Assembly (NCBI GenBank): GCA_964276515.1
Contig: OZ193909.1
Location: 11,656,001 to 11,720,000, forward strand
Length of the DNA stretch: 64,000 bases
Source of the DNA: Gordius albopunctatus
Lineage: Eukaryota
Reading direction: 5' to 3'
A program made the position numbers and the translations under genes. This document shows positions 2,943-64,000 of this stretch, one piece after another (the first letter of the stretch is position 1; each line of letters opens with the position of its first letter). The notes under the pieces are model-generated. The model saw only the letters and a list, made by a program, of their open reading frames with translations, had not been told where the DNA came from and did not search any database.

Positions 2943-3164
2943 GTTATTGATAAAATAAATGTAGAAGCAATGCAAAATATTCAAATTAAAGTCATACACT
3001 TAATTAAATTTATATTAAAATAAGTCGTAGTTAGATGGTAAGATAGGGCAAAAAAATTATACTCAGATTTATTTTAATATTTAATAAAAATAAAATAAAA
3101 AATTAAAAAAATTATTCCCAGTGTTAGCGCCGGTGCTATAGCTCTAGCGCATTTAAGTGCTATC

Positions 3165-3380
3165 GGCTATAGCTTTAGCGCCTCAAACCTCCCATCTCCT
3201 ATAGCTCATAGCACCTCAAACCTCCCATCTCCCATAGCTCATAGCACCTCAGATCTCCCATCTCCCATAGTTCTAGCACCTCAAACCTCCCATCTCCCAT
3301 AGCTCTAGCGCCTCAAACCTCCCATCTCCCATAGCTCTACCGCCTCAAACCTCCCATCTCCTATAGCTTATAGCACTTAA
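3165..3380. repeat. Minisatellite, ~30-31-bp unit (ctcccatagctctagcgcctcaaacctcccat), about 6 copies
   Basis: Tandem units visible directly, with degenerate tagc-rich flanks. Confidence 0.9.
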
Positions 3381-35062: not shown

Positions 35063-38000
35063 TTATAACAAGGCCGCAATTTGTTGTGGCGTTTTGAGTT
35101 GGTTTATAAGTGTCAGTAACGACCTAACGAATTGCTTCTCTAAATTAGCTTCACTGGTCAACTCTTTATAAATTAATTCGTAGGTTTGCAGTATTAAGGC
35201 GCAAGATTTGTCCAAAACAGTTTCTCTAAAAAATTGATGAAATATAAAAAAAATTATAGTGAAGATTTTAATTATTATAATGTTTTTGTTTAAATAATAA
35301 AATTTAAGCTAGTAATACTTATTATATGCCTTAACATTTTCATTGTTAATTAATCGATTTAAATCTTTCTTTCAAGACTTAGAAATAATTATGGTCAACA
35401 ATAAACTAAAGCAAGATTCTTATAATTAAATGATTGAAATTGATAAGCGTTTCAAGAGAAAAATTTCCAACTACATAAAAGGTATGTTGCTACCAACTAA
35501 AATATAATAAAATAATGACTTGATATCAATGTCTTGCAGCAGGGTAATATCGGATATAACATTTAAATCTGGGGCTGATAAGTATTGATCAAAGAGGAGC
35601 AACGAGGAACTCAGTACATTATACAATTCCTGTGTCAACTCAGATGACTGTCCTCCACCCAAATCTTGATTCAAATTTGATTGAACGTCAGAAAACTTTT
35701 GTTGCAACAATGTTAAGCCCGTCTTATTCAACACATAATGAGCTTGTTCTTGAGCTAAGCTTTCTATCTTATTGCCCACGTCAAGCTTGAAAATTAAATA
35801 GAGCGACTACATTGTAAACGATATGATATTATAGAAGGTTTATTGCAAGTAAGTTTAAAGGAAAATTTCTGCTATATTTTAAATTTTAAACTGATAAGGT
35901 CACGGGTAATAAAAATATTTTAGCCCTACATAAAAAATACCATAAAACTCTATCAAATAAGAACAAATAAATCAATTTTGCGACTCTACTGTTTTTAAAT
36001 TAAATTGCAACCATTTGAATGGTATCACATAATAGCCTTTCAACCTAAAAACTCTCTTTTATCATTGAAAAACTTTGCAGTAACCCTAAAAATTATCCTA
36101 TTTAACAACTATATTTTACTGGTCAGAAAACAGATTATATATGTGCAGGTATCATTTAATATAAAGCAGAATTTACCCGAATCTCTATGTTCTTGACAAA
36201 TTCAGTCGTATAATTATCGGATAGATTGGGTTTGAGGGTTTGGTAAAGGTGGTGAAAACAATTTAGCTGATAAACATTTTGTTGAATTGGATTTTCGAGG
36301 TAGTTTGAAGAAAGCTTTACTGTTTGCACCAAAGGATTTAATAATTTTTCCGTTATCTTTATAACAAAATATATTAAATAACATTAAGAATAACAAAAAA
36401 TCATTTTTGAATCTACAATTATCGAATTGGGCAACGATACAATTTATCTCTAATACTATAAATAAGGACACAAGCTTTCTAATGCAAAGTAAATCGCTAA
36501 AAACATACAAAGGCAAGCATTACCCCCCATCATCAATAGTCCACCTGTGTAGACTGCAATTACGCAAATTTTAATAAGCAACTATAAAATGTTAACTTAA
36601 CATTTGTTTCTATAATTCTTAATTTCTCAACAAAATTAACAACCAACTATAAAACTCTTGCCAGTACAAGAAATGTTAGGAAATTCATACAATGGTTTGA
36701 ATTAAACATTCGTAAAAACGATTTGACACTCTTTAAAGATAAGAGTTCTTGTTATAAAATTTGTACTTGACTTTCTACTAATAAATTATTCTATCTATCA
36801 ATATGTTATATTATTACTTATATATATTTAGATAAATTAAAACCTTATTCAATTCTCGGGTGCTTTCGTGCGTTATAGTTGTCATAAAGGTGGATTTGGC
36901 TGAGAGCATATCTTTGATGATGGACAAGATATAACTAAAATATGCCGTGGGGTAGAGGTCCTGGCTAGGATGGTCGCTCTTGATTCAAGAAAATAATTCA
37001 CATATAATGAAATGTTACACGGGATCTTCCTCCTATATCACAATTCAATAGTGAGTGCAAGGGGTTGGAATTTTTGCCGAAATATTTAGGACCATACACC
37101 ATTTCTAAATTTGGTATACCTATTACCCTAAACTAGACACACTGCTCGACCAAAGTGATATTTATACAGACATAATATATTGTTTGTTTATATTTTACTA
37201 AACTATTAAAATCTAAGCCATATTAGAATTTTTGACAGTGTATATTAACGAAGAATTTCCAACGTTTATTACCGAAAAGAACAAACTTAAATGTTAAGGA
37301 TAGCCTATGCTTACAAGAAATGTTTACCTTTTCCTCCAATTTTCGTATGTAAACCGAGAAGGAGGCAATCAATTTATCTCGTGTCAATTGGTCCATTTCT
37401 CTCAGCATACACACAAAATTTGATTTGGTCGGGAGGTATTCCACCAGGGTATTCACGTAGAATTGAATCATGTTTGCTAGCTTAAACAATATCACCTCTT
37501 TGGACTCCGAAACGATGATTTGTTCTATCCTCATCTAGAATAACAAGCAACGTATTTTATCAAAAGTTACGAAGCAAACAAATTTTGAATATATTCAATA
37601 CCGAAAGGGGCTCACTTTCAATTTTCCGAAGTCACGCCGAACGTGTCACGCACCGAATGTTTTGTCACGTTTTTATTTTTAATTGCTATGCAATTTTTAA
37701 TTTACCTAGTTTGTGGGTTCGAATCCCGGAGAGGCCACTTTTTTTAAATTAATATATTGTTCTTGTTAATACCATTGATAATATGACTTTATGGCCTTCC
37801 GTTGGCTGCTGACCAATGAATAAAATGACCATCGCCCAAATTGTGAATCAAAATTTTTTTTCGTTTTTTTTACTTTTATGTATTTATATCCACTTTTACC
37901 GTGTGCTGGCTGCTGACCAAAGGAAAAAATGACCATTGACCAAAATGTGAATCGAATTTCGAATCAACCTAGCGTTGAGATTATGTTTTGCTTACTCTTT

Positions 38001-41000
38001 AGCCTGGTTTATTCCCATCTATGATTTTTGTATAATTACTGTAAAACTACAAGCAAAAAGCGCATGAGCTTTAGTTTTTGCCAGTCACATTATTTGTTAT
38101 TAAATTATGACGATTCCAACATAAATTGCATAGCAAATATGCTTTGTTTTTACGAAGTATAAAAGAGTAATCGATGTGTATGAGAATTTGAAGCAAAGAT
38201 ATGTGAAGCAGGGACTGTCCTGAGTGAAACGGGGGTCTGGGGGCGAAGCCACCAGTTACGTCAGAAGGGCGTATTATATTGTCTTGTCAGAATTTTTTTA
38301 GATAATTCCAAATGTATAGGAAAACCGCAGTATTTTAGAATGCCTAAATAAATCACTTAGTCCAAATGAAAAACACACACATGACGAAGACGGACATAGG
38401 TTTTAGAGCATTTACTGAGTTCAACAACATTCCCAGTAAATATTGCCTTGCATAAATTATGCATTGGAGAATTATAACATTTATTTGTCAAACATTAAAC
38501 CGTGCGTTCGTAAACTTCTGAAGCAAACGGTAAACAAGTGGGAGTACGGGCCTTCGGGCTACCGATTCTCACTGGGGACGAAAGCCACAAGGCTCCTGAC
38601 TGGTGGAGCAAGATCAAGGACTTCCTCAAGGAGACACGTCGTCAGCTTTTTTCCCCTACACCGAACAACGATAATGACGACGACCAACTACCAAAACCAC
38701 CTCCACCACCGCCGGAGGTAGAATAACGCATCAACCCTACCAAGGAACCCACGGAAGGTGACGCAGGATCGGGGGCTATCCCGAACCTCATAGAGCAGCA
38801 TAAAACGCTCTTTAAATGGGGGAAAACCAGCACTACCCAAAAACCCACGGGAAAGCTGGACATCAGAACGTCCCGACTCAAACCACACCCATTGATGTCG
38901 GAATTCACACTCAAAGTGGCGTTCGAAGGGTTCAAACCTCCACTGGACCTGCCCAAAATACGGCAGAATGGCGGCTTATTCAAGCCAGACAGATGGAGGC
39001 GCACATCAAAAGGGTCGCCAAGCTACTTTACGACTATGAAAGAAGAGTCCGTTGTTTCCGAGACGCAAGCGCTCGCGGTCACGTCCTCCACCTTCTTCAT
39101 AGCTAAGAGCAATGGGGATGCCCGAGTAATCACCGATCTATCTGAAGCATCAAAGAACTTCAGACATCTTCCGGTCAAACTGGCAACAATCCCATTGACG
39201 TCTAAATCCCTGGCAAGAGCAAACTATGCCGCAAAAATTGACCTCAAAGCGGCTTTCTTCAGCATCCCGCTGCAGAACAACTACAAAAAATACTGCGGAT
39301 TCAAATGGAGAGGGAAGCTGTTCCAATACAACGTTTTACCAATGGGAGCTTCCTTCAGCCCGTACGTATTACAAACCATTGTGGCAAACCTCGTAAAAGC
39401 CTCGGTCAAGCACTGCCACTACAACGTCTACTTAGACGATATCCTCATCTTCGCACAAGATGAGGACGACGTAGCAAACGATCTGGGAGAAATAGCAGAG
39501 ATGGCCAAAGAATGGGGGCTAACGATCAATACGGCAAAATCCTCCATTATGCCTGAAAGGGCACTCAGCTACCTGGGGCTGTTACTCAACTTCGAAACGC
39601 ACACGATCAGCTGCTCGGTAGAAACGAAAGCAAGGCTTACTTACGCAGCTGACATCCTCTACCTGTACCTGTCAACAAACGTCCTCCCAGCCTTTGATGC
39701 TTCAGATAGATCGGTGATTACTCGGGCATCCCCATTGCTCTTAGCTATGAAGAAGGTAGAGGACGTGACCGCGAGCGCTTGCGTCTCGGAAACAACGGAC
39801 TCTTCTTTCATAGTCGTAAAGTAGCTTGGCGACCCTTTTGGTGTGCGCCTCCATCTGTCTGGCTTGAATAAGCCGCCATTCTGCCGTATTTTGGGCAGGT
39901 CCAGTGGAGGTTTGAACCCTTCAAACGCCACTTTGAGTGTGAATTCCGACATCAATGGGTGTGGTAATCATGTAAAATTGTATTGTGATTATCAACCTTC
40001 AGGGGCCTAGATATGCCTTCCATGATGTCTGCCAGCAAGGCTTTCATTTTATCGCTGAGTGGGTGTTGTTGCTCGGTTTGAGTCGAGCCATAGCTCCCAT
40101 TATCCTGTTTAAGGTCGCACGCATTGCTAGATAGAGAAGAGAGCAATTCGCTTTCGGACATGATGAATTGATGGACCCAAGCTAACATGTCCCCGACGTA
40201 ACGCAATGGGTCGTGGGCGTGCAATTCGATTGGTTTTGGTACGCCGCCAGGACCTGACCAATTTGAAAGGTACAAAAAATATTTTTAAAAGTGGTAAATT
40301 ATTTTAGAAAATTGACTCGAAAATCTTTTGTAAATAAGCTCAATGGGTATAATGTGCTTATCTATAGCAATATACGATAACCGTATAAGTTTGATTTAAT
40401 TTTAAAGGAGATTAATTATTGGACTTAAACAGGGCGCCATCTGTTATATTAGAAACTACTAAGATATATATAAAGTGTTGATGTTAGATGTCAGCGGTAT
40501 TTCAAAGTTACATGTTAAATTAACCTAGCCAGCGCTTATTTATCGATATTTAATAATAAATAAGAATTTAACTTGAATTTAATATCTTTAGCTATAAATA
40601 TTTGTGTTTTTTATACGCCTATGGGAAGCATTCAAGATTCGATTCGAATTCTTATGTGCAAATTTCGAACGAATCTTAACTTGCTGATATTAGAAAATTT
40701 AAATCAAATCTTTAAAAAAGATTTGAAAAATCATTTAATTTTTAATTTGTTTCAAAAGATGAAACGCATAAAATACAGCTTTTTTATCTTACCGCAATTT
40801 AGTTATATTTCCCACTATCCTTTTTTAATCTCGTAATCATAAACACACTTAATTTAATTTCATTTTGAAACATAATAAATAAATTCATTATAAATATTTT
40901 AACATATATTTATTTAAATTTATTTTAATATGATAAATCTTATGTCTTACATTCTTATATAGACAACATATTTTTTTCTATATCGAAATAAAAAGTAGTT

Positions 41001-44000
41001 GTGTGTAGTGATCACCTAACCCTAGATTAAGGTTTCCCGAGGTCCAACCTGAGGTCGGTTTTACGTTGTAAAAAACCTTATAACCTTTTTCAACACCCAA
41101 ACCTGAAGCTAAGATTGATCCCAAAAATCAGCCTGAAAACCCTTAAGGTCAATTATACACCCAACCTGAAACCGCATGATGACCTCATTGACAAATTCGT
41201 TATTTTTATTATGATAAATTTAGGTATGAATTTTATATTTTAAATATTTTCCTTTCTTCAGGATGCATTTTTTTCCATTTATTATTGAAGGAAAAAGATA
41301 TTGGTGTTAATATTAAAAAATTTTGAGAGATTATCAATTAATATATGTTTATGTATTTTATAAAAAAAACTCATCATTGTTTTATACGTTATTCTTAAAT
41401 TTAATAAATTCTTTACACGTTATTATATTTGTGCTGCCCAGTGTAACCTGTAGGTGACACCCCTTTTTTCTCAAAGTAAATAATTTTTTCGAAATTTTTC
41501 AATTGTTTAGCTTTATTTAGCATGTAAGAAAGCCCAGAAAAAAATTCCATAAACATTTTTTCGGCCGAACTAGTTTTGACAAGACAGTGTAACTTTTAGG
41601 TGACGCAGCTTTAAAACCACTTTTCTCAAAAACTACTGAAGATAAAAACATTTTTTAAATTAAATTTGAAAGAAAGAATTGCGATAAATCAGCTGATATA
41701 ATTTCATAACTCATTCTTCCTTCCTTCGTGAATTATTCTCATTCAAAAATCGCAAAATCTGCATTAATCTACCCGGAATAAATAATTTTGTTGAAGATGA
41801 CTATTTTAAAACAACTCTCAAAAAATATTTTAGTAGTGGGGCTATTTAGAGCGGGTCTATAATTATCTCTAATTCATTCATACATTAAAAACGGTGCAAA
41901 CTTACAAATGTAAAACAAATTTGTACGAGAAAATGAAATGAAAATAAACAAGTATTTTATCAATATATGGTCAAATTTGTTAAGGTTAGGTATTTGGCTT
42001 ATCAAATGGCAGTACAATTTAATTTATCAATGCCTAATTCATGGGTAGAATATGAATATGAAGATTGGTTTTCATCTTTTATTCAAAGACCTGATTTCAT
42101 TAAGGACTCTAGAACTAACATGATATTATATTTATATGCAATAAATTTAAATCTTAATTCCATTTCATGATTGTCAAGTTTATGTGACACCTTTATATTA
42201 ATAAAGCATTTAAATCAATGATTTCAACATAACAATCTCTGTAAAAACACATTTACCTTATAAATTTGTTTATGAAGCTTTATAAGCTATAAAAGACAAA
42301 CTTAATATTTAACAATATTATAAAATATCATAACGAAGATAAAAAATATGAATTTAAATAAACAATTATTATGGTGCAATTATACTATTTAGCAAAGATC
42401 ACTAAAATAATTTGACGACTTTTTTTAAAATTAAAATAATGATATTAAATCAAAATTTAAACCATGTGTATTTTTCCATAAGGCATAAGTAAAAAAATTT
42501 TTTGTTTAGAAAAAGCGATTTTTCGGGGCTATTAGTAGCCTTTAAATTTTTTTTTATTTTGCACATAAAATTTTTTTGGCTGAATATTTTGGATTGCTTT
42601 AACTTTTATATGCAAAATAACATCTTAAATTATTAATTGTTTATGAAAACAGGGGTCGGGGCTAGTCGGAGAGGGGCTGTTGCTAGCCATTTTTCATTGT
42701 GTCTTACAAATAAAAAGATTTAAAAAACAAAAAATTTTGTTTAATAATCTAACTGAGTGTTATTTGGAATAGAAATCGACTATGATTATACATTATAAAA
42801 TGACTAAAAGTTATTTTCCATTGCTAAATCCGTCTTTTAGGTGTTCCTAAGTCAGATTGTCATCTTGACCCTTTTTTATTTGTTTTATAAAAAAGATAAT
42901 CATATTACATTTGCATTTTCAACATTTTTCATAATGAAACAATATTTTTATTGATTTGAGTTAGCAGACACTAATAAGAAGTGAAAACGTCAGAGTTAAT
43001 CTAGCGGCTATGACTAGCCCCGGGCATTTTCAATTTTTTTGGATTTTTGTTTTTAACTTAATTTGTGAGAAAACTATTACTTATTTCCCTCCAAATTTTT
43101 TTCCTATAGTAAAAATAGATCTTAAAAATATATTCCAACAAAAAAATTGGAAAGATTGTTTTTAGTTTTTTTAAAAACTCGATTTAATTTTTTATGGCTA
43201 AAGTAGCCCCGGTCTCCCCTAGTTATATTATCCTTAAAATTAGTTAATTTAGGGGTTAAAGTCCGTTTACGCGGTTGTCCGTATTTTTTAAAATAATTTT
43301 TCACTATCTCTTTTTAAATTACATATTGTAATTTTCCCCTATTGTAGCAATATAGTAGCCATGCATTTTCGCATGCAGTATATCCTGCCCAAATGCAAAT
43401 AAAGGAAAATACCATTTTCTGCTGCTAAATGATAATCTAGTTGCATCCATATTTTAGTCAAAGCGGTCGACACCGCCCAAAAAACAATTAGACATTTTGA
43501 TCGTATGAGGATATTGAATTACAATTTTTTATATATTTTTTCCGCTTTCGTGATTCTTGCAATAGAGGTGATAGGCTTGACCCCATGGCAATTTGACAAC
43601 ACTGTGCCAATATTATTATCATTCCATCGGATCAAATAAATGTTTTTTGATAGAAACCCTCGTTCATTTACATCGATGATCAGGCATTTTAAACGATTGA
43701 CTCACACCATTCCTGAGTCCCCAATATTTGTGGCTCGTAAAAAAATTATCGAAATTTCTAAGTGGTAGTTGATTTACTAAGTATAATATGACCGCTCCTC
43801 CTAAACTTATTTCGTTTTGTCGAGTTACGGAAAATTTAGCCCCCTGGTAAGGTTGAAATGTGACAAGGTAACCATTTTTTATTGCAGCACAACACATATT
43901 ATGGCCGAAACGAAAAGGCTTGCCTTTTAAAAATTGTTTTGCATTATGGTGCCCGAAATAAAGATCCATACACTCTTCCATGGATATGTGAGAAGAGCTA

Positions 44001-47000
44001 CGATGTTCAAAGTTGCTTTTGAACTTTTCATTTAAAAGATCCATATAATCTCGACTTTGAAAAAGTGTCAACCTTTACCAATTTACTCTTGTCGGTCAAA
44101 TGTAAATATTTAGTAATTTCTTGGAAGCGATTCTACGCATTCCATAAGATACCATTTGGTTAAAACAGTCAGCTCTGAGCTTCCAAAACATTTTAATATT
44201 TTTAGGAAACAAGTAGCCCGTTTAAAAGAGAATTGAGATATAGACTTTAAATTCATTAACATTTAAATTGAGGTTGTAGTTATGCTGAGAAGCATATAAA
44301 TTACTAATATTCACCACATACAAAATAACATCATCTGAGAAAAATTGTTTCAAGTGCCATCGATATATTAAAAAAATTTCATAGAGTGGGTTGGAATTCG
44401 AGCCCTGCATAGGTGACCCGACTAATTTATATGATTCCAATGTTAAACTTAATTGAGATTTTTTAGAACCACAATACCGTAGAAGTTCCTAAGGAATTCA
44501 CTATATCTCAGAGCCTCTTTTTTACGGTATTATCGTTTCTCTCGCGCAGGCACAACCTCTGCCACTCGTTGCCATAAAATTTATATCCCCTTTCTCCCTG
44601 CCATTGTATATGCCCAGAAAGGTTCCCTCTAAAAGTGTTGATAATATTGCCCTTAACAAATTCTTCTCTAAGTACACTTCCCAAATCAACACCCCCGGCA
44701 ACATGAACTCCCCCAATGATAAAGAGTCCGTCACGGCCAGAACAGGAGGCAACGCCACAGATTCAGCGATGAGGCTGATCTTGAATAGGCTAGCCGAAAT
44801 GGATGCCAAGATTGACAATAGACTCCTGGGAACTAGCGGAGAAACGATCAATGCGGATGATCGGCCGCATTGGGCGCCTACTGCGCAGACCGAGTCAGTG
44901 ACCATGACTCGAGCCGAATTGGATGCTCTCTTGGCCAGTGAAAAAGCTAGGGCTGCCAATGTTCCCACTTCAAGTGGAGAAATTTTGAAACTTCGCCTCA
45001 AAGGCCTGAGGGAGGCTATCGAGACCAACTATTCTATGCCAGCGCATCAAAAGCACGAGGCGGAATTCCTCCTCAGCCTTGGCGATACCATCAATGACTA
45101 CGATAAGACTATAGACAAATTCTCGGACAGAGTTCGCACCATCGCCATGGCCTCATACTATGGATGGCAAGCGGTGACGGGGAAATCCAAAGACTGGGCC
45201 GAAAAAATGGGAATGGGGCAATATACGGAGCCCGTTCAGCTTTTTCGGCAAACTCCTCGCTTCAATGCTCGAGGAAGAAGGGCTCTTACCAAAAAGGGCA
45301 GGCTCCGTCTAGGACGGAGCGAACGTAATAACGTAAGGACGGTAGCGGCGACCCTCGGCAGCGGTGTTAACCCGCCGAGGTCGGCGAGGGATGGTACTAC
45401 CCCTCCATGGCTTAATAACTACACTGCCATTGCAAGGAGTATCGGTTTAAACACCATCTCTCCCGACGATGGCCCGGAGTTGGAGGAACCGATTCACCCT
45501 TCCGACACGCCGCTACCTGAACGTACGAATGTGCCGGGGCATCTCCTTGATCAATGGACGGAGGTGGGTTTGGATAGCGACAACCCACCTATCATTAGCG
45601 AGCCGTCCAATATTCCCTCCTTCCCCTCCCACCCCCTCTCATCATTCACCAATTTTAACCAACCATTATCCATCCGAACCTCCATCCTCAAACCACATTA
45701 CATGCAATCCCGCTTCACACGGAACATTGCGAAAAAAGGGTTCAAGCCCAGGCTTTCCCGAGTGGCCATTGCAGCTAACAATGGAAGGTATCATATCCCC
45801 CGTTACGTCAAAGCAATTCCAACCGAGCACAAGAGACTGATGGGGGCCAGTTTCTCCCCATTCGTCCTTCAACAAATCATGCTCGACCTTTGCAAGAAAG
45901 CGGTTACAAAAAGCAAATACAATGTCTACTTGGACGACATCCTGATTTACGGACGTTCAAGCACCATGGTAAAAGCGGACACACGTAGATTCCTGTATAT
46001 GTCCAAATGCTGGAATTTGACGATCAACAGGAACAAATCATCGCTGGAACCAGTAAAAGTCATCGACTATCTAGGTATCAACGTCGATTTGGAAAGTCAT
46101 ACTCTTCGGGTCAACCCCAATTCATCACCAAAATCGATGCCGCAATCTAAATAATGAGCCACTTCATTCTCACAGGAACCAAGCCACACCCGTTAGTTAC
46201 ACAAACTTGTCTGGGTATTCTCACTCACTATATTTACATGTTAACCGGGTGGTCCACACCTGCTTACAACATCATGCTAGCTGGAGAACCCACCACGTTC
46301 AATATGGACTGGCTGTTGAAGAAGATCTTTATGATCCAAAATCACTTGTCCACTCCATTCGCCATAAAACACAGTCCCAACGGTTTCACAGCCGGCGACG
46401 CCTCCACCTCTCATATTGGCTTATTCTACAGAGGATCTATCCTCTCCATCGCCAAAGGAGATGCGTTGGCCATCTTCGGCTGCCACGATCTAATCCCCAC
46501 GATCAATCTCTTGGAACTCGTCGCAATCCCACTGGCGTACATCAAGGCCGCGGTTGATACCCCTCACATCACTCCCAAAGTCATTACCGACTCCAAAACA
46601 GCGTTTTACATAGTCAAAAAAGGGGCAGCTCACGCAATACACTTGGAGCTTGCTTTCGGCATAATCTGACACACTATGGGCCTCGACCATATGTTACGAA
46701 TTAAACAGAACCTGGAATGGGTTGGTACGGATCACAATCCGGCTGACGTTCCTTCTAGAGAAAGTTTCTTCGACGACGACCAATTAGGAAGGCTGGTGTA
46801 TTGGGCACGCTCGAACATTTCATCCCGACAGAACAACACCTCATTTGCTTAACCACAATACCGTAGAAGTTCCTAAGGAATTCACTATATCTCAGAGCCT
46901 CTTTTTTACGGTATTATCGTTTCTCTCGCGCAGTCACAACCTCTGCCACTCGTTGCCATAAAATTTCTCGCGCGCGATTTATTCTTAGATGTCTTCACAT

Positions 47001-50000
47001 TTTTCTTGGAGTTGACCCGAAGAGTATGACTTTCCAAATCGACGTTGATACCTAGATAGTCGATGACTTTTACTGGTTCTAGCGATGATTTGTTCCTGTT
47101 GATCGTCAAATTCCAGCATTTGGCCATATACAGGAAGCCAGTTTCATTAAAAAAATTTAAGAATAGATCAAAAAATTACGAAAATGTGACAAAATTTATG
47201 ATTTTGAGCCAGACAGTTCGAACAGAATTAATAAATTGGGCATTAGAATGGTTTGGGTTGGCCCCGGGCAATTTCGTTATTAAAACCATGATGGGTTCAG
47301 GCAGAAAAATTTATAACAAATAATTAATGATAAGGGCATTAATTATATGTATAGAATAAGCAACGTTATAATAAATAGTCATTTGTTTTTCATTTGCCCA
47401 GCGCTGTTTACAAAAACTGAAGGAAGGTTTAGTCACTTGATAAATTAAATATTTTATATGATTTTTTTAACTGCTCTATAAGCTTGTTTTAAAATAAAAA
47501 AATTAAATATATTTTCTTTATCTTTTTTAGCTCTTCTTTAAGCTTGAATTATTTACCTCTTTTATATCATTAATGAGATCATAATTACACACGACTATTA
47601 CAATTATCTTTTATTCAACGATAAATTATCCAATGTATCAAAACAAATTAAACCATTTATATTTATGAATTCTGTGCCCAATTATTATGGCATAGAAAGT
47701 CTTGATCTCTTCTTTGTAACAATATCGCCCGCTTCGACAAAACTTTTTCCGCAGCTATAAAGGATGCTTGTTGACAGAAAAAAGACCGAACCATTTTACT
47801 TAGATTTGGCAATTTAATAGGGATCACCACGAATTCGAATTCTGGCTTTTTGCGAGTAGAGATTTCATCAAATCCCATATTAGAATCTAATCTAAAGAAT
47901 TACAAGGTATTATAAATCAATTTATATTACGTTTTTTGGTCCTTTCGAGTTTTGATATTATTTATGTGTTATCCACAACTGCCTACCTTTTTTATATTCG
48001 GTTTCCAAAATAGTTTTAAATTTGAAATGATGACTTTCTAATGTAGAGCTACTGGCATAATTTCATTCTTGATCCTTGGATCCAAGAACATGCGTAATTA
48101 CCAAAATTAGCCACATGTCTTATCTAACTATTTAGCCTTTTAATCATTATATCCGCGGCTGTTTTTATTAAATCGTTCTCTATAATTACTTTCCTACCTT
48201 CTAAATCTTCAATCATATTTTTATTTTCAAAATAAAGTAACACTGATCCCACAGTATTTGTTTTCTGCGAAGACATTTACTCCGTATCTTCGTTAGAAGA
48301 TCCTCTACTTCTGTTAAGATACCCATTTCATCTTTGAAAGAATCAAGTCCTGATTATTTATCTTTTTATAAATAATTAAATAGATTTATAATGTGGCACG
48401 CACATATAGGGTGATAAAGCTTTTATCATCAAGTCAACAGCCGCGTTTTTGTTGGCTGCGTTGTAAGTCGTTATGGAAATTATATTTGGAGGATATTATA
48501 GAATCCATGACATTTTTCATTTCTTTGTATAATTATATGGAAGTGTGAGGATAGGTGTTTTCCAAAATATCAAGAAGTATCGAAATATACTGCCAAGTTC
48601 GTGTATAAAGTGCGAGTAATATATGAATCTCCAATCAACCGCAGTTATTGATTTTTTAAATTTTATTTGTTTAAAATAAGTTCAACTTTGTTCTACCGTT
48701 CTGAAAACAAACTGCTCAATTCATTTTTCGCACTATTTTTTGATCAAATTTGAATATTGGCATTTATATGTTGAAGCAGGCCCGAAATATTTGGGCAATC
48801 AAAAACCTTGATTGTAAAATTGTCATTAATTACGAAATTTTTAAAGTTTTGGGTCATAATGACCCCCTTTACTATCCTTATCAGTATTTTGACATCTACA
48901 AGGGGTTAATCAACTTATATTTGAAAATTGGAAAGCTTTCCTTTTAATTTTATGTCATTTTAAGATTGGGGTTCGATATAGCACACAAATCTGACAAAGT
49001 TAGATATTTGCACAAGTACTCTCGAAGGCTAAAATTTTATCCATTTTAATCTAGCTAAAATTAATGTGTCGCCATTAAATAGTATGTGTATATATACCAA
49101 CTTCTAGTAATTATTATTTATCAACCCCTAAAAATTCAAGAAAAAAATGCGCCAAATGTTCAAAATATTTAGCGCAAAAACTTCTTCAAGTATAATATTT
49201 GTCGCAATTTAATTAAATAAATTTTTAATTATCAATTCCAATATGAGTTTATATATATATATATTTGCTAGGTAATATTAAAGAACATTTTGAAAAGCAT
49301 CATGGGAAAATCTTTCTTTCGAATAATAATTTTTTAAGTAACAAACTTCTAACCAAAGATCAAAATTTATCAATAAATCAAAAAATTTTGAATTTCGTAA
49401 TTAACGATAACTTATCCATAAAGGTTTTTGAAAGTCCTAATTTTCGGATCTGCTTTTACACATAAATGCCAATATTGAAATTTGGTCAAAAAATACTGCA
49501 AAATATATTAAGCCGTTCGTTTTCAGACAAGCAGGGTAAAGTTAAAATTATTTGAACAACTTAATTTCAAAAATATCCATAACTACGGATGTTTGGAGGT
49601 TTATAAATAATCGTTTATATGTAGCTATTACCCCGCACTTTATAGATGAACTATGGAAACCTATTTCGATACTTCTCGATATTTTCGAGACTGTGAAAAG
49701 TGTCCCGGAAAATTATAATATACTCCAAAATATAATTTCCATCACGACTGACAACGCGGCAAACGAAATCGCTGCTGTTGACTTGATGATAAAATACATG
49801 AAAGAAAGAAATATCGATATTTACCGCAATAGATGTGCGTGCCACATTATAAATCTTGTAGTTAAAGAGGGGTATTGGAAATTGATGCACCGTTTAAAAG
49901 AAATATATTATGTGGTTCGGTTATTACGAAAATCTTCTTTTTTAAGTGAGGAGTATTACAAAAAGACGAACAAACAATTACCCGTTGGAACTCTACCTAT

Positions 50001-53000
50001 ATTATGTTAGCTGCAGCTAATAAAGTATATTGTCGATATATAAATTTAATAATCTTTATAGAATATAGCATGCTTGAATTTTATTATTGATAAAAAAAAT
50101 AAATAATCAGCACGTGGTATTTTTAAATGATGAAATTGGTATCTTAAGGGAAGTAGAGGGCCTTCTAAAACTTTTCTACGAAGATAAGGACGAAATGTCG
50201 TCACAGAAAACATATACTGTGGGATCAATGTTGCTTTATTTTGAAAATATGATTGAAGAGTTAGAGAGTAGGGAAATAGTCATAGAGAACAATTTAATAA
50301 AAACAGCCGCGGATAGAATGATTACAAAGCTAAATAGTTACATAAGACAGGTGGCTAATTTTAAAAATTACGCATATTCTTTCTTGGATCCAAGTATCAA
50401 GAATGAAATTATGCCAGTTGGCTTCACAATTAAAATGTCATCATTTCAAATTAAAAACTTCATTTAAAACCCAATATAAAAAAGGACAGGCAGTTGTGGA
50501 TGACACAAAAATATCAAAATTTGAAAGGATTGTTACCAAAAAAAGTAATATAAATTGATTTATAATACCTTGCAATTATTTAGATTAGATTCTAATATGG
50601 GATTTGATGAAATCTCAGAGTGTTCGCTAAAAGCCAGAATTCGAATTCGTGGTGATCCTTACGCGTGGTGGGCCGTCAATGGCGTTGAATGGTATTTTCT
50701 CTGTCAACAAGCATCCTGCGTAGCTGCTGAATGAATTTTTTCGAAAGCGGGGGATATTGTTACAAAGAAAAGATCTAGACTTTCTTCTGGTACTTTAGGT
50801 TATATATTATGCCTTAATTATTGTTCGCAGAAATTACAGATATAAATGGTTTTATGTTGGATAATTTATAGTTTAATAAAAGATAAGTAAAAGTCGTGTG
50901 TAATTATGTCCCATTAATAAACACAGGTCTACACAAAAATTAACCTGCAATCAAACCTAAAGTCCTGATAGAGAATTTTGCGCTGAATAATATTTTTTAG
51001 TTTTTTTCCATAACTTCCAATTTTGTAGATAAACGAGGTTGAAGATGCAAAAATGTCCATTTTACCCTTTTTCGAGAGGCTCAATTGTTACATTTATAAT
51101 TTATATACAAAAATATTTAAAGTCCATTATTTTATTCTTTATATCACCCTTATATTTAAATTTATTCGCTTAAGAATTGTATAAGAAAACAAATAAGGGT
51201 GAGGATTTAATTTCCACGCAATTAAAAGGATCTTTTTATTATAAAAATTTACTTAAACTTATACATAGCAATATATCACTTATCACAACAATATTATGCA
51301 AATCCCTTTTTTTAATTATTTATTAATTGAGTTAAAAATATTTCGCTATATCACAATATAGATTTTTTTGTTAGATATTAATTAAATTTTACTAAAATAT
51401 CTTAATTATTATATTTAATAAATTACATGGAACCAAATATCTTGTGTAAGTTATTTATACTTAATTCATAATAATTTTAAATAAATTTCATCAGTTATGA
51501 CCTATTTTTTAATATTTCCTAAGATAAAATTCATGCTATGGTTTAAAATTTTTTCGATTCTATACGATATTCCTTTTCGTTTCTCCCTGCTCCCTCCCCT
51601 ATTCATATTTAGAAAATAAAGTGTGATTTGTCTATTGGGCAGCAAACGTTCTCTGGTGTTTTTCTAATAATCTCGCTATGTGACCCAGAGACCAGATTGC
51701 CCGGCCCACCTAAATTTTTATTTTCGGGCGGGCCCGGGCGGGCGGCACGAAGATAGGATTCTGGCAATTCGGGCTTAATAAGATTTTTTAAATAGTGTAT
51801 TATTTTGTTACTTTTTATTTTATTGCATATTAAAATGCTAAAAAAGTTTAAAAACTTGATTTCGCCATCACAAAGTTTCTCCAATTAACTTTTATTATTT
51901 CCTTATTATTCGTCGCTTTCGTTAAATTACTAGTTATTTTCATGATAAAAATTTCTATACCTTTCTTTTTTTGCTTTAAGTTAAAAGAATTATCCATAAA
52001 TTGCATTTAAATTCTATTGATAAATTATTGTCTTTTTATCAAAAAAGTAAGTTTTAACAGAGCACAGATTGACTAATTCAACTAGTTTTATTCATTAAGA
52101 AGTTTATTTATGGGTAGGGCAAACGGGTTAACTCAAAAGGGGAGTATAATTTTGTTTATTGTAATATTATTTATTAAATATGTAAACTTTAAAGTTAATT
52201 AAAAAATTTCTACATAAATATTTTCATGGACTTGTTTTATGCCATTAATTTAATGCTTATTTTTTAATTGTTGTTGTAGAATTTGAGATCGTAAAATTTC
52301 GGGCCTAACAGGCAAATTTAATATTTCGGGCCGGGCAGCTTTAATGTTTCGGGCGGGCCCGGGCTGGCAATGAAGTTAAAAAATTGAACCGGGGCGGGTT
52401 CGGGCATAAAATTCCTAAAAAATCTGACCTCTGATGTGACCCGTTAAATTCATTTTTCTGCTTTTGTAATAATAGTGTGTTTATTTCTGTGATTTTACCT
52501 GTTCCACATCTTTTAACGCTAATTCTATCAATTATTCATTTCAACATACGCATACTACAACATATTTATAAAGTAATATAGTAATATTATTGGAAATTTA
52601 ATTAAATAACTTTTTATCACTTATAAGTAGAGCTGTTAAAGTTCATCTTAGATATGAACTAGTTCAAGTTCATCCAAAAAAAACGAACTAGTTCAGTTCT
52701 TGGTTCAAATTTTACAAAATTAATTAGTTCAAGTTCAGTTCATTTTTTTTAATATTATAGAAATTTAATCAAGTTGAAAAACGTTTTATCTGATCCAAAA
52801 TTAGTTTTTTAATCTAAGTCTAATCAGTAATTATACAATTCTATGAATCAAATATTATTTGATGATGAAGTTTAATTATTTTAACCTATTATTATTTATT
52901 TTAGATTAAAAATAGTCTATTATAAAATCCAATTTAATTAACAATTTCATATAAAGCTTTTTTATACACAACTAAATAAGCTACATGTATAAAACCTTTA

Positions 53001-56000
53001 TTTTTCATTTCAAACAATATAATATATAAAATTACAATTTATAATAGAAATCAGAGGGAAGTAGATGGAAATTGGACTTCAACAACATATTATTTTCAAA
53101 ATTATCATTTAATAAAGAAGAACGTCTATCCCCAAATATGAGTTTTCCTAAGCTGAAAAGCCTTTCAACAGGAGCACTAGATGGGAGGCAAACGTTATAT
53201 TTAAAAAAAAATTATTTGAAATGGGGGAAACTAGTTATATATTTCAAAAGATGTATTGTTTAGTTTTACAAAGTTCTCAATGATCTCTTTATTTGAATCT
53301 TCCCGTCTGATGTCAAGGAAATCCAACCCATTGTAAGTTTGGGGGTTCACATTTTCTGCATTCAATGGCAAGATAGAATTAATAGCTTTTAAGATTCTAT
53401 ATTTCTCCTCCTGATTTTTTGATAATCTTATCCAAGCCCAATCTGTTTTGAACATTGGATGCAGGACAGGTGCAATAATGTTGTCATCATCATACTGCCT
53501 TTAAATCTGCAGAGATGTGCCAGCAATTTTATAATCATATTTAAATTGAATTCAAGATACCAATAAGATTCCTTTAAATGTTTCCAATAGGTGATTGGAA
53601 TGTGTGGTTCTTTATTTACATTGTGAAGGAGTACAACTTTAAGGCTGTTTTTAAAAGCAATAAATCGACATGCATTCTCGTCGAAATATTGGCCAATTTA
53701 TCCAGATAACAAAAACACAAGTTTTTCGTGCACCTCAAAATATTGTTTGATAGTTGCATTCCGATTTTGAAGGATATCTTGAGCCCCGGGACAAGAAATG
53801 AACTCTAATGAACCCCGTTTCCAGACATAGTGGGATGAATTTTAATATGGAGTTTACGTAAGCGCGAATAAATTTAAATGGGGGTAAAACAAAAAATAAA
53901 ATAATGGACCTATAGATGAAATTTTATTCTACATGAATATTTTTCACTAAATATTAAAAATGCCGTGGCAATATAGCCTAAAAAACCTTGTTTATCTAAA
54001 AACCTGAAGGTTTTGGGAAAAAACTAAAAACAGAAGTGCAAAATTCTCTATCAGAATTATTGGTCTGATTGTGGGATGGAATCACAAAGTCAATATTTGT
54101 AGACCCGTGTTATTAATATATTATAAAATAACACGGTATTATCTGGGCAATTGAAAACATCAATATTTAAATGCCATCTTTTTCTAAAGCGAGTAAGTAT
54201 GTATTTGAAATTATTTTATATGAGAAAGCGTAAATTTGTAGTATATAATGTTTTAACTGAATCAAACTAAAGATGGATCTCGGATTTGCATCGTTTTCAA
54301 TTAAAAAGATATACACGGGTAAATATCAGGGTTGGCCTGCAAAAAACTTTGAACGAATTGTGATACCGTTCAAAGCGAGTGTTGGTCCTCACTTCTGCCA
54401 CATTTCATGGTAAGAAACAATAAAGGAGCCTATTCAGTTATTATAAATTCAGGTTAAAAAAGATTTATGTTTAGCACGAGGGTGACATTAAGGTTTTTGC
54501 CAAAAGGCTCTATAAATGAGCACAATATTTTCAATTTTGAATTAAAATAGAAACAAACACTCACACCATTTTCATTCTGTGAGGATCTCTAAAATAATCT
54601 CCTTCAAGTCTAGCCGATAGATCCTTATGAACAAGGCCTTGGAGTATAATCGAAGTGGCGCCCTTAGGTAAAAAAAACTTTACGAATTCTGTCGAGACGA
54701 TTTTCCGATGCCGTTATAAAATCTTGTTCTATTTATCACATTAATTTCCACTTAAGGGTGCTTGTTCCATTTTTCCAACGCCATGTTGAGAACGATTGAG
54801 CGCTTAGAATTAGAGGGCAACTTTTTTATGATAAAAAAACTTTTTTTAATATTTCCAAGATTCAGCATTGTTTTCGATCAGCTGCTGCATTTTTACACGC
54901 AGATATCCTTAAATTATACGAATCCATAGTTAAAAATCTCCTAGAAAAAATTCTAAACTTATCTTTCAATGATACTAGCTGGTTACAAACCACTCTTCCA
55001 ACTAAATTTGGAGGATTAGGAATAAGGTCACCCTTGACCATTAGCCTAGTTGCCTTTCTCTCGTCTTACAATTTAGTGAAAGATCTCGTTTTTAAATTGA
55101 CCACCCATACGGAAGATTTCTTAACGCAAACAGCTTTAACATCATGGCTTGAAAATGTAATGCCAGGAACCATTATTCCAAATTCAGTCAAACAACGAGA
55201 CTGGGATGCCAGTATAGTGTCACGCTCCGCCGCTTACCTTACTTTCGAGTTGTGACGCCGTACAGCACTTCAATCTCAGGTCACTAACGACTGACTCTGG
55301 TCACGAATGGCTGGAATGCATTCCGAGCAAGTTCTCTGCGCTCTTAGTCTCAAACCCCGAAATTACTTACGCGATCGCCTTGAGACCGGGGATCCCAATT
55401 TGCAAGCAATTGACTTGTAAAAATTGTAAGAAACAAATTGATGTTTGGGCCCATCACCCCTTACATTGTAAACTCAACAAATTCCGTTTCATTCGCCATC
55501 AAAAGATCAACCTTTTGATCCAAACCGCTTTACTAAAAGCCGGCTTCCCTTCCATTCTCGAACCATCAGAACCCACTCTTGAGGGTAGAATGCGCCCCGA
55601 TGGAACATCCACAATTCCATGGGATGATGGTAAGTTCCTATTTTGGGACTTTACCTGCATCGACGTATTTGCACCCTCTAACAATAAAGCTGACCCACTA
55701 GCTCTAGCGGAAACAAGCAAAACCAATAAATACCGTGATATAATCCCTTCTAAAATTTTTATCCCTATCGTGGCTTCCTGTTCCGCTACTTTTGGCAAAC
55801 AGGCATTAGCCTTTTTTAAATTGATAGGAAAGAGATCTCCCGAAGGAAAATACTCCGCAAGCTTTCTTTTGCGCCAAAAAATAGGAATTTTAATAGCCAA
55901 ATACAACTATAAGGCATTTTCCGACACCTGGCCCTCGATGAAGATGAAGAGTAGCCACGCATTTTATTTATTTATTGATCGTGTTTTATATTTTTATTAT

Positions 56001-59000
56001 ATATAGACTTCACCTAATAAAGATTTATATTAAAAAAAAGAAAAAAAATATATATATAACATTTTCAAAAATGGTTTGGAGAGTGTCGTCAGGCTATCCT
56101 TTTTAACGTATTGAAGATGTCGCTACGGTTTATATAGCTGGTTGAGAATACCCTATTGTTTCCTAACATGCTAAACTACGCGTGTTTTTACATATATATT
56201 TACAATATATGAGTTGGCCCCTCTGCCATTTCTTCCATATAAAATGTGGCAGAGTTATATGGGTGTTAGTCCTAGGAATAATAATCACCTCGATGGGTAC
56301 CACAAAATCCCACCCCGATATTTACACTTGCATATCCCTTTTAAATGAAAACAATGCAGTAGCCGAAATAAATCTTATTCAGATTGATCAAGCTAAAATA
56401 TTATAATCTACATATAAATGCGATCGCGAACAAATTTCTCAAATACACACTTTGCTCACGTTATACATTGATAGTCCGCCTATTGTTGACGTCTTAATTT
56501 TGATAATATAGCAAGCTTTTATCTTATAGTTTTAATTCGGATTAATGGAATTTTCTAAACTGACAATTTAAAATCGCATTATAACCATAAATCGCTCGTT
56601 GACAATATAATGAAGATGGAGATTTGAATCAATCATGGAAGTATTATGTAAAAAATATTAAATTCAAATGAAGATCTACAATAAATATTTCTAGATACTT
56701 TCAATATTTTTTACTGAGCCCATAAAACATAAATTTGATGACTAACATTTAGGATATATTTATAAAATAGCATTCTGCCAAATAAGGTGCTGTGCGTACA
56801 CTTACATTATTGAGCAGCATCAGGCATACTGAGAGACAGAAAAATAAATGAATATATAATGCCCACTAAACTATACTACTAATTCCATTAAAAGCTTTGT
56901 TTTTACTTAATGCCTCTTTACTAATATGTCCCACCTAGCCAGGGACATATTACTTTCTTTTGATTTAAAAGTTGTTCCCATTTTAACGATGCAAACCTCA
57001 AATAAATATACTAAAAATTATTATAGATGGAACAAGAGTAAACCTTCTAGCGTCATGGCGTTTATGAACAAATTGTTGACGCTATTTTTCCGAGCCATCA
57101 CGAGTTCTTGATAGATTTCTTCGCTAACCGCTTCGGGCTGCAACAAGAGGAGAGCCTTTTTGAGCAACGGTTTAATGTACACGTTATCGCCAATTAGTAA
57201 CCGACACTGATCTATGTGAAACAAATTTTCAAATCATTCGTTCGTAAAAAAATAAAAAGTACTTTGGAGCAAGAAGAAAACCCTAAAAATTCTATAATTG
57301 TTTAACAAAATTGATTAGTGATTTACTAAGGATTAGGAGTTATCAATAATTTACAGGTTCGATACAATTTTAACGATTAATAACAAATTTAATCCAAATT
57401 TGTGGCCTAGATAGAACCTAAACCAGTGGATACCCAACCTATTAGGCGCGTTATCTTGACATTAATATTGCCTTAAATTTTAATAAAATGCACTCATACA
57501 AACAATAAAGCATATATAGAGAGAAATTATATCAATTTATTAAAAATTTAATTACAGTCATCTTGACACATTCTTATATAATTTAAATAAAATTATCATG
57601 AGAGAACAACACATTTTATAGCATAAATAATAAATAGATGTAATATTGCCTGTTCATTTGTTTTCATTTCAAGCAATACCATATTTTGCACGATTTTTGA
57701 CGAAAATTATGAATTAGATGTGTCTTATGCAATCACAATTAATGTTTAATCTATTCTTTAACCATGCATTTCAAAGGTATCTGTACAACTGACTTAAACT
57801 AATTTTGAAAAATTGCTTAAGAAAAAAATGCCAGAATTTTTATAATAAAATCAAAAATACTTTAAAACAATATATATTTATATCAAAAAACGAAAGAAAA
57901 GGCCAAAAGTATTACAAAGTCACTTCTAACCTTAAGGTTTAATAACACATGTAATTTGAAGAAAAGATTCAAACAGGTCCCACAATTACTATGTTTAAAT
58001 CATTAGAACATACACTTAACTGGGTTAATATTCTAGAGAGCATACAATTTTGCTGCAATAAAAATGGCATTCACAAGCTTGGGTATCAGTTTTTTGACTT
58101 TTAGCTAATAAACTTACATAATCTTTTTACCCGGTTTGATGGGACCTTAGGATTATTAAACAAAATTTAACTTATGTATTAATATTTGCTGTTCCTTAAC
58201 AAATTTTAATGCTAAAGGCCTATCATAAAGTTTTTTGTTACCTTTAGTCCACTTTGTTAAGGTGTCCAGAGCTTTGTTGTAATTATAAGAGTTTTCCTTA
58301 GCAATATGATTCACCATATCTTGTGATAAATTGTATTGGTACAAGGAATTCTGGCTTTCAGCATTTATGCAAATAATTTTTTTAACAACGTTTATAAACT
58401 CCTAATTTTAAATAACACACGTATAGAAAATAAATAAATCAAAAAAATTATTTGGTTTCTATCTTTAAATTTTTCTATTAATAAACAATTTGCCCTTTAT
58501 AACATCTTTTAATGTTCATTTATTATATTTAACAAGAATAACATGTTATATTCAATTGCTATAATAGACATTAATTAAAAAATTTAGACATCAAAATTAA
58601 ACATAAAAATAGTTTATATGATTAATTGATTTCAACTTGAAAATATTTTTGTTTTTTACAATTACTGAGATCAATTTGTTTAATTTATCAAAAATATGTT
58701 GAACTATTAATTACAAAAATAATATAATGGAGGGAAAGGGGGGTGGAAAGTGTAAAATTCCCCCCCCCCCAAGAAAAATTAAAAAAAAGATTAATATTTA
58801 AATTAAATGGGTTGAATTATCATATTTTAGTTGCATAAAAGATTTTAAGACATTTATAAACACCCGTAAAGATAATACATACATATCCTATTCTTTATAT
58901 AACAATTTTTTAATCCATCAGATTAATAATATCTAGATAATACCCTGAATTTATCCAATAACATAGATAAAAATGGCTCACTTATCTATAAACAATTATG

Positions 59001-62254: not shown

Positions 62255-64000
62255 AGGCCATAGTAAACAGCGGTCCCAAGTCCGTGTGCAAAAAGTGGAG
62301 GGTTGGCGTCAGGTCGAAAACCGGCCATAAAAACCAACTCTAAAATTATGATATTTTCAAACAAGATTTTACAAGAAAAGGCTAGGGCGTCCTCCACAAA
62401 CGAAGCACACTGCATACCCCGCCCGTGCAATGTGAAAAATACATTAGGGTTACTGCCTAACTCATAACTAAGGCGGTTAAGGAAACTACTTGTGAAAAGA
62501 ATGCAAATAGCTTGCTGGAATGTAGGAACGTTGACGGGGAAGAGCATCGAGGTCGCACAACTGCTAAAAATAAAAGGAAGGTGCACATCTCCTCCCTACA
62601 AGAGACGAGGTGGAAGGGAACCAAAGCCCAGGAGTTAGGAGAAGGGTACAAACTATTCTACAGTGAGTCATCAAAGCGTAGAAGCGGGGTTGGTATCGTT
62701 CTAAGCAAATCGTTCAAGGATAAGGTGGTCGAAGTCAAGCGTTGTTCCGACAGGCTAATGTGGGTGAAGATTGCCTACTAACCGTTATGTGCGCCTATGC
62801 TCCCCAAATTGGGTGTTTGAAATCAGAGAAAGACATATTCTTTGATTCATCGGAAAAGGAAATACAAGGAATAAGAATAAGACTGGAAGAAAGGCTAATT
62901 ATTGGGTCAGATTCCAACGCTAACGTAGGGAAAGATCGCCTCGGGTATGAACGCAATCATGGAGGCTATCGGCATGGTCTGAAGAATAAAGAAGGGGAAA
63001 ATTTCTCCAAGTATCCCAAGCATATGACATGGCGATCATTAACACATATTTTCAAAAACGCAAAGATCATATTGCGACCTATAGAAGTGGGAAGCATTTA
63101 GACAAATTGACTAATTGCTTATACGACGAAAGGACTTATTGAGTATCAAGGATTGCAAAGTAATACCGGGAGAAGAAATCGCCAGGCAACACCGTCCCCT
63201 TGTTATGGATCTTGACAGAAAAGTATTTCCCGAAAGAAGAAAGGTCTATGAACCTCGTTTTCGATACGAAAGACTAAAGGATACGTCGGCAAACGAAGAA
63301 TACCATCAAAAAGCCTCTCTCACTCTTGGGTGCAAGGAAGTTGTAAAGGGGCGTAGACGACGATTGGGAGACGCTATCTAATGACATTAATGAAACAGCG
63401 ATCCGTGTTCTAGGAAAGACCAAAAGAGGCAAAGCTATGAATAGGGAACTATGGTGGTGGGATCAATCGGTTAAAGATTTCATCGAAAGAAAGAAAAATC
63501 TATATAGACGGTGGCATAAATTAAAAAAGTCCCAAAATTATCAAGGGTACAGAGGCGCAAAGAGGGGCGCAAAAAAGGCCGTTGCAAAAGCAAAGAATGT
63601 CGCGTACACCGAGATGGCAAACAAACTGGATGATAAAGGGGGCGATAGGCTTATGTACGAATTAGCCAAGATAAGGGAGGAAAAAAGTCGCGATGTCGGA
63701 GTTCTTAAAATAGTCAAAAACACGAAGGGTGAAACCTTATTCAGCCGAAAGAAGTGATGGAAAGATGGAAAGGATATTTTAAGAAACTTATGAATATTGC
63801 AAATGACAAGGATTCCCTTCCCGAAATTGAGCCAAATATAAGTATGGTCGAACTCTTTCAGAATGATGAAGTTAGGACACAAATTAAGAAGATGCAAAAA
63901 GGAAAAGCAAATGACCCAGATGGAATACCTATGGAAGCATTGCTCGGATGTCGTGAAGAAGGAGTCAGCGCCATGACGAACCTCCTTAACAAGATATTGG
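62255..64000 (+). mobile_element. RTE-clade LINE, 5' portion (leader, APE endonuclease, start of RT), degraded; same family as 1-1728
   Basis: Peptides WNVGTLTGKS, LQETRWKG, GVGIVL, AYAPQIGC, DSNANVG. 62982-64000 aligns colinearly with window positions 1-972. Confidence 0.93.

Follow-up and report, generated by a model that had tools for sequence, protein, structure and literature searches.

A window of 64,000 nucleotides (nt) from Gordius albopunctatus (GenBank assembly GCA_964276515.1, contig OZ193909.1, forward-strand positions 11,656,001 to 11,720,000; all coordinates below count from its first letter) contains, at 44467-47136, a compact retroelement, here termed element A, which is a damaged member of a multi-copy family encoding reverse transcriptase (RT) as well as RNase H, and in which neither integrase nor recombinase was found. 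The explanation judged best, at a probability near even, is that element A represents captured DNA of an episomal, HEART-grade, pararetrovirus-like replicon of approximately 2.7 kb, belonging to the HEART/hepadnavirus lineage and joined to the chromosome by end-joining. An earlier note on this DNA, made from its letters alone, had proposed either an episomal replicon or a recombinase-less offshoot of the DIRS elements. Both kinds of explanation still stand, but by its RT and RNase H (RH) the element is not DIRS in the strict sense, and the episomal option is somewhat favoured by the ~2.7-kb unit, by a diverged copy with no gene between RNase H and repeat, and by junctions resembling end-joining.

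The DNA of the window around element A is AT-rich, transposon-rich and eukaryotic, and the element forms a GC-richer island within it. Its boundaries are set by a pair of direct repeats (44467-44582 and 46851-46966), each of 116 nt, 99% identical and spaced 2,384 nt apart, which is the repeat-to-repeat distance given in the earlier note; likewise as described there, the final stop codon (TAA 46850-46852) runs two bases into the right repeat. Because the segment at 47006-47136 is an inverted copy of the element's own RT region lying behind a filler, a fact that the earlier description missed, the 2.7-kb span 44467-47136 is not itself the unit. The earlier size estimate of ~2.7 kb would nevertheless hold for the unit once deleted RT sequence is added to it. 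Three 8-mer matches link the filler to the 100-nt right flank, a result equalled by 19 of 2,000 random draws (positions on both elements were skipped in the draws, and the flank was picked after the match had been noticed), and the outer junction of the inverted fragment with the right flank is covered by an identical contig (47094-47888, 0 differences). In agreement with the earlier note, no target-site duplication (TSD) of at least 4 nt was found within 8 bases of 44467|47136; at 44467|46966 none was found in register, the only match being one off-register 4-mer. These junctions look like end-joining rather than transposition. Within the repeat, the fold of 44467-44540 scores z -2.2, with 6 of 200 shuffles equally good; its 12-bp stem and the CATAAA motif are weak hints, and the hairpin is at most a predicted packaging or priming signal.

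Analysis of the coding content of element A has revealed considerable damage. The earlier note read a single frame from ATG 44703 through RNase H, a reading refuted by a frameshift at ~46120-46150 and a stop codon at 46667-46669: the open reading frame (ORF) that starts at this ATG ends at 46152-46154, just beyond the frameshift. The motifs quoted earlier for a gag-like region, an Arg/Lys-rich stretch, a spacer, RT and RNase H are all present, but the N-terminal half of RT is not. Approximately 105 RT residues, including the first catalytic motif, are missing at 45839/45840, and are present both in element B, a second lineage in the same window, and in proteins of Gordionus; the Pfam RVT_1 match in element A covers only profile positions 121-205 of 205. 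The RT remnant shares 51% identity over 93 columns with the Gordionus protein P0009, and the connection and RNase H share 30% identity with it (E 5e-13). In this copy two overlapping genes have probably been fused by accident into one long ORF, since single-base insertions or deletions (indels) occur near 45269 in other copies and a double stop lies at 45326-45331 in another frame.

The protein encoded upstream has proven resistant to comparison. No homologue at E up to 1 was found among proteins of 103-329 amino acids (aa), no match in the ESM Atlas, and none among PDB sequences below E 0.39. The structure prediction suggested in the earlier note yielded a helical single-sequence model, but at a pLDDT of 50.6, and fold searches with it were uninformative: Foldseek gave no match under E 0.001 for this low-confidence model, and the structures it resembled were generic helical hairpins only (best Z 7.7). 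A likeness, R..IA.A...GW..V, to the gag of retrotransposons bearing a tyrosine recombinase (YR) was also considered and found unsupported, with one viral-contig match to the motif and none by phmmer.

Other copies of the element were seen only as assembled contigs from two runs (X1 and X2) of one study, which may be the window's own source and therefore provide no independent support for the locus; no RNA data set carrying the element was listed. To 44380-47250 aligned 450 contigs in X1 and 843 in X2, of which 356 and 561, respectively, are less than 95% alike; the pieces listed number 16 of 1,356, the joints 15 of 40 and the loose ends 12 of 425, and summed contig depth was not taken as copy number. 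One copy, found in both runs, carries 325 letters at 45839-45852 where the copy in element A has 12, and nine X1 contigs have loose ends before 45840. The RT deletion is thus confined to some copies, and 2,384 plus ~313 nt would give a full unit of ~2.7 kb. Single-base indels near 45269 account for about one third to one half of local depth (two contigs in X1, depth 436 of 982; three in X2, 1,517 of 4,495), and such indels are also found at 46120-46146. An X1 contig with 92 differences over ~515 bases (82% identical) leads from RNase H straight into an entire repeat with no gene between, two further contigs reach 26 bases into the repeat from RNase H (below the bridging rule), and in diverged copies the repeat also stands before the 5' leader. 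Deletions in other copies span 63-599 bases, and apart from the missing RT piece no large insertion occurs among the joints that were listed. The earlier note had considered that other copies might hold a recombinase between RNase H and the repeat; none does among the pieces listed, and no circle junction occurs among the joints listed. In X1 the stretch 44380-44475 is without contig cover, and none of the contigs listed reaches across the element.

The copies have diverged under coding constraint in the connection/RNase H region, where 10 of 14 listed variants fall at codon position 3 (p 0.004; the variants were drawn from the 40 best supported of 366). The corresponding share is 3 of 6 in the upstream gene and 4 of 10 in the spacer and RT, with no clear bias. 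Searches for related DNA gave nothing usable among viral contigs, one Gypsy-type locus aside, and 0 confirmed of 127 candidates among metagenome contigs.

The defining features of known families were sought in turn. Across the whole window, translated in six frames, a profile built from the YR genes of related loci detected no tyrosine recombinase (best E 3.8), and Pfam searches of four segments of element A matched RT only, without protease or integrase, bearing out the earlier statement that no recombinase or integrase is encoded. Neither split direct repeats (A1...B1-A2-B2) nor inverted terminal repeats with an internal complementary region were found, the element having one simple direct-repeat pair and no internal complementary region; no B repeat was detected, as no word of at least 11 nt is common to repeat and body and the 3' end of pol does not recur in the filler after the right repeat. 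No methyltransferase follows RNase H, the frame closing 30 residues past the RNase H end motif NPADVPSR, as against tails of 100-200 aa in DIRS-type matches. In trees, RT and RH separate from Gypsy and BEL rows. The 137-aa region before RT is a low-complexity spacer, and three of the four hepadnaviral core motifs, LP.DFFP, LW.H and W..P..Y (found in 21, 16 and 21 of 21 hepadnaviral cores), are absent from the upstream protein. For an epsilon stem-loop, the repeat's 12-bp stem is a weak candidate, with no Rfam match above noise. A 9-nt likeness between the repeat and the hepadnaviral direct repeat DR1 was discarded as chance, since every hepadnavirus genome has some 8-10-mer in common with the repeat. 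Taken together, element A is filed in none of Blubervirales, YR retrotransposons, DIRS or the long terminal repeat (LTR) elements and Ortervirales; it is kept out of Blubervirales because core, terminal protein and the repeats DR1 and DR2 were not detected.

The closest relatives come from a single genus. When the RT of element B was compared by HMMER with 1.84 billion representative proteins, three matches at E 3e-50 to 7e-43 stood ahead of a next tier at 6e-25, and all three belong to Gordionus sp., a horsehair worm (Nematomorpha), at 40-46% identity. A profile search returned eight Gordionus proteins among 44 matches, from at least five different contigs, and Gordionus proteins match the RNase H pieces of element A too. 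The proteins of Gordionus sp. RMFG-2023 (XP_065317776.1, XP_065315139.1, LOC135924076 and CAK9296137/8), which fall in the same clade as elements A and B, combine RT with RNase H without a methyltransferase, are annotated merely as uncharacterised and in some cases bear an 80-aa acidic tail after RNase H.

In the trees, 'DIRS' denotes a tail of at least 100 aa after RNase H, 'compact' a short tail or none and 'YR' a match to our profile, which was started from a recombinase motif; none of these labels is a named reference, and the Blubervirales rows are hepadnaviruses only, with HEART, VIPER, nackedna- and proto-nackednaviruses left out. In an RT-only tree made by a quick method (26 of 60 long-tailed proteins drawn at random; one unanchored, two duplicated), elements A and B group with Gordionus at a support of 100, and these with hepadnaviruses and 11 compact proteins at 93. 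The RT+RH alignment, which lost three of 43 rows as unanchored, gave in a tree without Ngaro-type rows a grouping of Gordionus, hepadnaviruses and four compact proteins at 97/94, and set a 16-row group apart from DIRS-type and Gypsy rows at 100/96. A signature in RT motif 2 that was noticed post hoc, D-F-S-x-x-S-[KR], is present in all 4 Gordionus rows and in all 7 hepadnavirus rows, takes the form D-L-S-x-x-S-K in element B, and is found in none of 10 YR-bearing, 13 DIRS-type and 14 compact rows; in element A its position falls within the deleted part of RT. The same motif occurs in the nackedna- and proto-nackednavirus rows examined in data set S6 of PMC12691608, and VIPER-like RNase H is reported to group with hepadnaviruses (PMC6681497). 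As recombinase-bearing elements have it too, the RNase H end motif does not serve as a lineage marker. The clade appears to branch deeply, apart from DIRS proper, at some point among the polymerases of Ngaro/VIPER-type elements, HEART and Blubervirales, leaning to the last. DIRS-like elements sensu stricto supply the best database matches outside the clade, at ~30% identity, but differ from element A in having a methyltransferase tail, a YR and inverted rather than direct termini, and lie apart from it in all trees.

Two further groups of proteins came to light in these comparisons. One is a YR-bearing clade (L047, L054, L068, L049, L091 and L104) with motif B PMGWS and motif 2 DAR or DCR, distinct both from fungal-type Ngaro rows and from DIRS. 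The other comprises unnamed RT-RNase H proteins (P0017, P0018, P0059, P0067, P0073, P0074, P0085, P0123, P0201 and P0203), most of which stop no more than 25 residues past the RNase H end motif (~60 in P0059); several have a long acidic, Pro-rich N-terminus, seven lie on contigs of 1.4-3.6 kb, and P0201 and P0203 lie on contigs of 4.8-5.3 kb and match the hepadnaviral RNase H family PF00336. These are possibly small undescribed reverse-transcribing replicons.

Under the favoured explanation, a small DNA circle would give rise, on transcription, to an RNA longer than one unit that carries the 116-nt repeat at both ends, and two overlapping genes would supply a helical packaging protein with a basic tail and a spacer-RT-RNase H polymerase. 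The RNA would be packaged with the polymerase and reverse-transcribed, the repeat being used for strand transfer so that the circle is remade, and linear by-products would be patched into chromosome breaks by host end-joining. Capture of this kind would leave copies without TSDs and with deletions, inversions and filler; the matches of the filler to the flank fit templated end-joining, if weakly. HEART elements have been proposed as hepadnavirus ancestors, though how they are mobilised is described as unresolved (PMC12440569; PMC12691608). The anatomy of HEART may already match that of element A; tick HEART RTs (PMC12691608, data set S6) have PFG in motif B, IDN or LDN instead of YLDD, and no DFS..S[KR]. 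A bolder proposal, well short of even in probability, is that these loci are fossils of an undescribed, minimal ~2.7-kb pararetrovirus family of horsehair-worm-like hosts, with a capsid-like gene, RT-RNase H, terminally redundant RNA and no terminal protein, which would mark a stage between YR retrotransposons and the protein-primed hepadnaviruses; proteins of the form spacer-RT-RNase H-stop on metagenome contigs of 2.3-3.6 kb would then be further, free-living members of that grade.

Several observations weigh against an episomal origin in the hepadnavirus lineage. Element A is one damaged member of a multi-copy family and not an intact single-frame unit, and a high copy number per genome is equally expected of a transposon. 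No DR1/DR2 pair was detected: a script that recovers DR1/DR2 in hepadnavirus loci found no same-strand word common to repeat and body longer than 9 nt, the ~315 deleted bases falling outside this check. No terminal protein was found by Pfam, and hhalign against a six-sequence terminal-protein profile gave E 0.32 and 0.74; the best match to a hepadnaviral core reached E 0.13, and 747 of 1,000 shuffles score equally well. When 10 YR-bearing, methyltransferase-less rows were added to the RT+RH tree (together with one DIRS-type and two BEL-type rows, and minus 10 DIRS-type and two hepadnavirus rows), the clade came to lie in an unresolved fork, its sister in the free tree being a YR clade at 53/68; in favour of the lineage, a tree constrained to unite Gordionus with hepadnaviruses was not rejected and scored 0.88 higher than the free tree (p 0.52). 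A clade of Gordionus with DIRS-type rows is not formally rejected (p 0.052). The NPAD.PSR ending cannot serve as a diagnostic mark: in 42 of 80 metagenome loci it has a YR gene next to it. Lastly, Euglenozoa clusters, which may be the YR carriers VIPER and TATE, come first among the language-model neighbours in the ESM Atlas (0.96), ahead of hepadnaviral P (0.93).

Element A may instead derive from a Ngaro- or VIPER-like YR retrotransposon that lost its recombinase, its repeats being A1 and A2 of split direct repeats and its circles having been inserted by a recombinase acting in trans or by unseen complete copies. This possibility is a serious but lesser one. Ngaro- and VIPER-like elements have overlapping gag-like and RT/RH genes as well as split direct repeats (PMC6681497), and the third ORF of TATE is its RT/RH gene. 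Element A shares with Ngaro-, VIPER- and PAT-like elements the gag-like gene with RT/RH, the direct repeats and the RNase H end, and, like the Ngaro-type loci seen, has no methyltransferase; RNase H of YR-bearing elements, too, closes in the shared end motif and has only a very short tail after it, and both the weak free-tree placement and the leading language-model neighbours point the same way. YR integration would be expected to leave no TSD. No YR was found in the window, however, nor a B repeat in element A by the word and filler comparisons given above, the 82%-identical copy shows the same join of RNase H to repeat, and the sole large insertion among the listed joints is RT sequence. 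Moreover, all 10 YR rows (VIPER itself is not among them) have other motifs 2 and B, and the ragged, inverted ends of elements A and B are unlike the products of a recombinase.

Quite unlikely, by comparison, is that element A is a true if very divergent member of Blubervirales, a worm virus of proto-nackednavirus grade endogenised many times. The resemblances are a small unit (2.7-3.5 kb; nackednavirus genomes measure 2.7-3.1 kb, PMC11551314), two overlapping genes of which the upstream one ends in a basic tail, terminal redundancy, the lack of an integrase, and a common RT motif 2, motif B and RNase H end motif; in addition, YGW (residues 153-155) and a PxFN further on are, to the eye and unscored, like FGW and PxFN of the proto-nackednavirus core (PMC12691608, data set S3). 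In contrast, three of four core motifs and DR1/DR2 are lacking, YLDD stands in place of YMDD, there is no surface gene, the copies are genomic only, and no terminal protein is detectable, whereas all proto-nackednavirus P proteins described have one (PMC12691608; PMC11551314). Less probable still is that the terminal repeat arose by accident from a longer element, through a tandem or rearranged insertion of which this is a remnant or through an assembly join, with the true ends and additional genes of that element beyond the window. The locus is clearly rearranged, and the gap in X1 contigs at its left edge and the want of a listed contig spanning the element would suit such an origin; against it, an identical contig crosses the junction with the right flank, diverged copies likewise have the repeat after RNase H and before the 5' leader, and even a tandem remnant would point to a ~2.7-kb unit.

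Table 1. Features of element A, followed by those of its neighbourhood; positions are those of the window.
Feature	Position	Strand	Remarks
Left terminal direct repeat	44467..44582	+	116 nt; predicted 12-bp stem (44473-44484 with 44520-44531); CATAAA at 44573
N-terminal helical gene, gag-/core-like by position only	44703..45266	+	188 aa to this point, then basic stretch
Likely overlap of upstream and polymerase genes	45265..45331	+	One-base indel in other copies; double stop in another frame
Basic, then Pro/acidic spacer before RT	45270..45665	+	No terminal-protein or recombinase match
RT remnant	45666..46118	+	N-terminal half deleted; motif B and YLDD kept
Connection and RNase H	46154..46852	+	Other frame after the frameshift; broken by TGA 46667-46669
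Right terminal direct repeat	46851..46966	+	116 nt; 99% identical to left repeat
Filler	46967..47005	.	39 nt; short (8-9 nt) inverted matches to right flank
Inverted RT fragment of element A	47006..47136	-	131 nt; 98% identical to 45990-46120
piggyBac-type transposase remnant, directly left of element A	43667..44350	-	PF13843
Element B, second lineage	38504..39965	+	Complete RT; ends after thumb at inverted self-copy
Host COG6 exon	39997..40253	-	PF20653 84-164, E 4e-26; edges inferred from AG/GT

Element B, which the earlier note overlooked, is 47% identical to element A over the C-terminal half of RT. It breaks off past the thumb, where its own 38882-39155 is repeated in inverted orientation as a 274-nt copy (39692-39965), so that two lineages within 5 kb each end in an inverted fragment of themselves. 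The next exon of the host gene COG6 lies within 37226-37534 (PF20653 164-236, E 5e-13); as two consecutive COG6 exons flank it, element B is intronic and antisense, 31 nt from an exon. No further COG6 exon was found in the 200 minus-strand frames scanned.

The remainder of the window holds additional repetitive DNA. A long nested inverted repeat (47647-50855; arms 70-96% alike) that encloses hAT transposase remnants starts ~500 bases to the right of element A. A LINE-type element is present in two copies, ~90% alike, at 12-1369 (RT frame 692-1369) and 62994-63703, and a short tandem array of 32-nt units occupies 3144-3400. Remnants at 54800-56006 and 59258-59752 carry an RPDG / DFT motif and have no Pfam match; they resemble the type of non-LTR element that closes with a restriction-like endonuclease.

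No description of the lineage of element A was found in the literature on hepadnavirus-like retroelements, Nematomorpha retrotransposons or the Gordionus genome, a search that did not extend to Repbase or subscription journals. Gordionus and Nematomorpha do not occur, by term search, in the 10 supplements of PMC12691608, nor do DIRS, hepadna, retro or viral in the accessible main text of the Gordionus genome preprint (bioRxiv 10.1101/2023.06.26.546503). [quoted passage not shown] With no integration enzyme found at the locus, the choice between an episome and a recombinase-less transposon becomes directly testable for this lineage, and the locus would show what these likely invertebrate relatives of hepatitis B-type viruses look like when complete.

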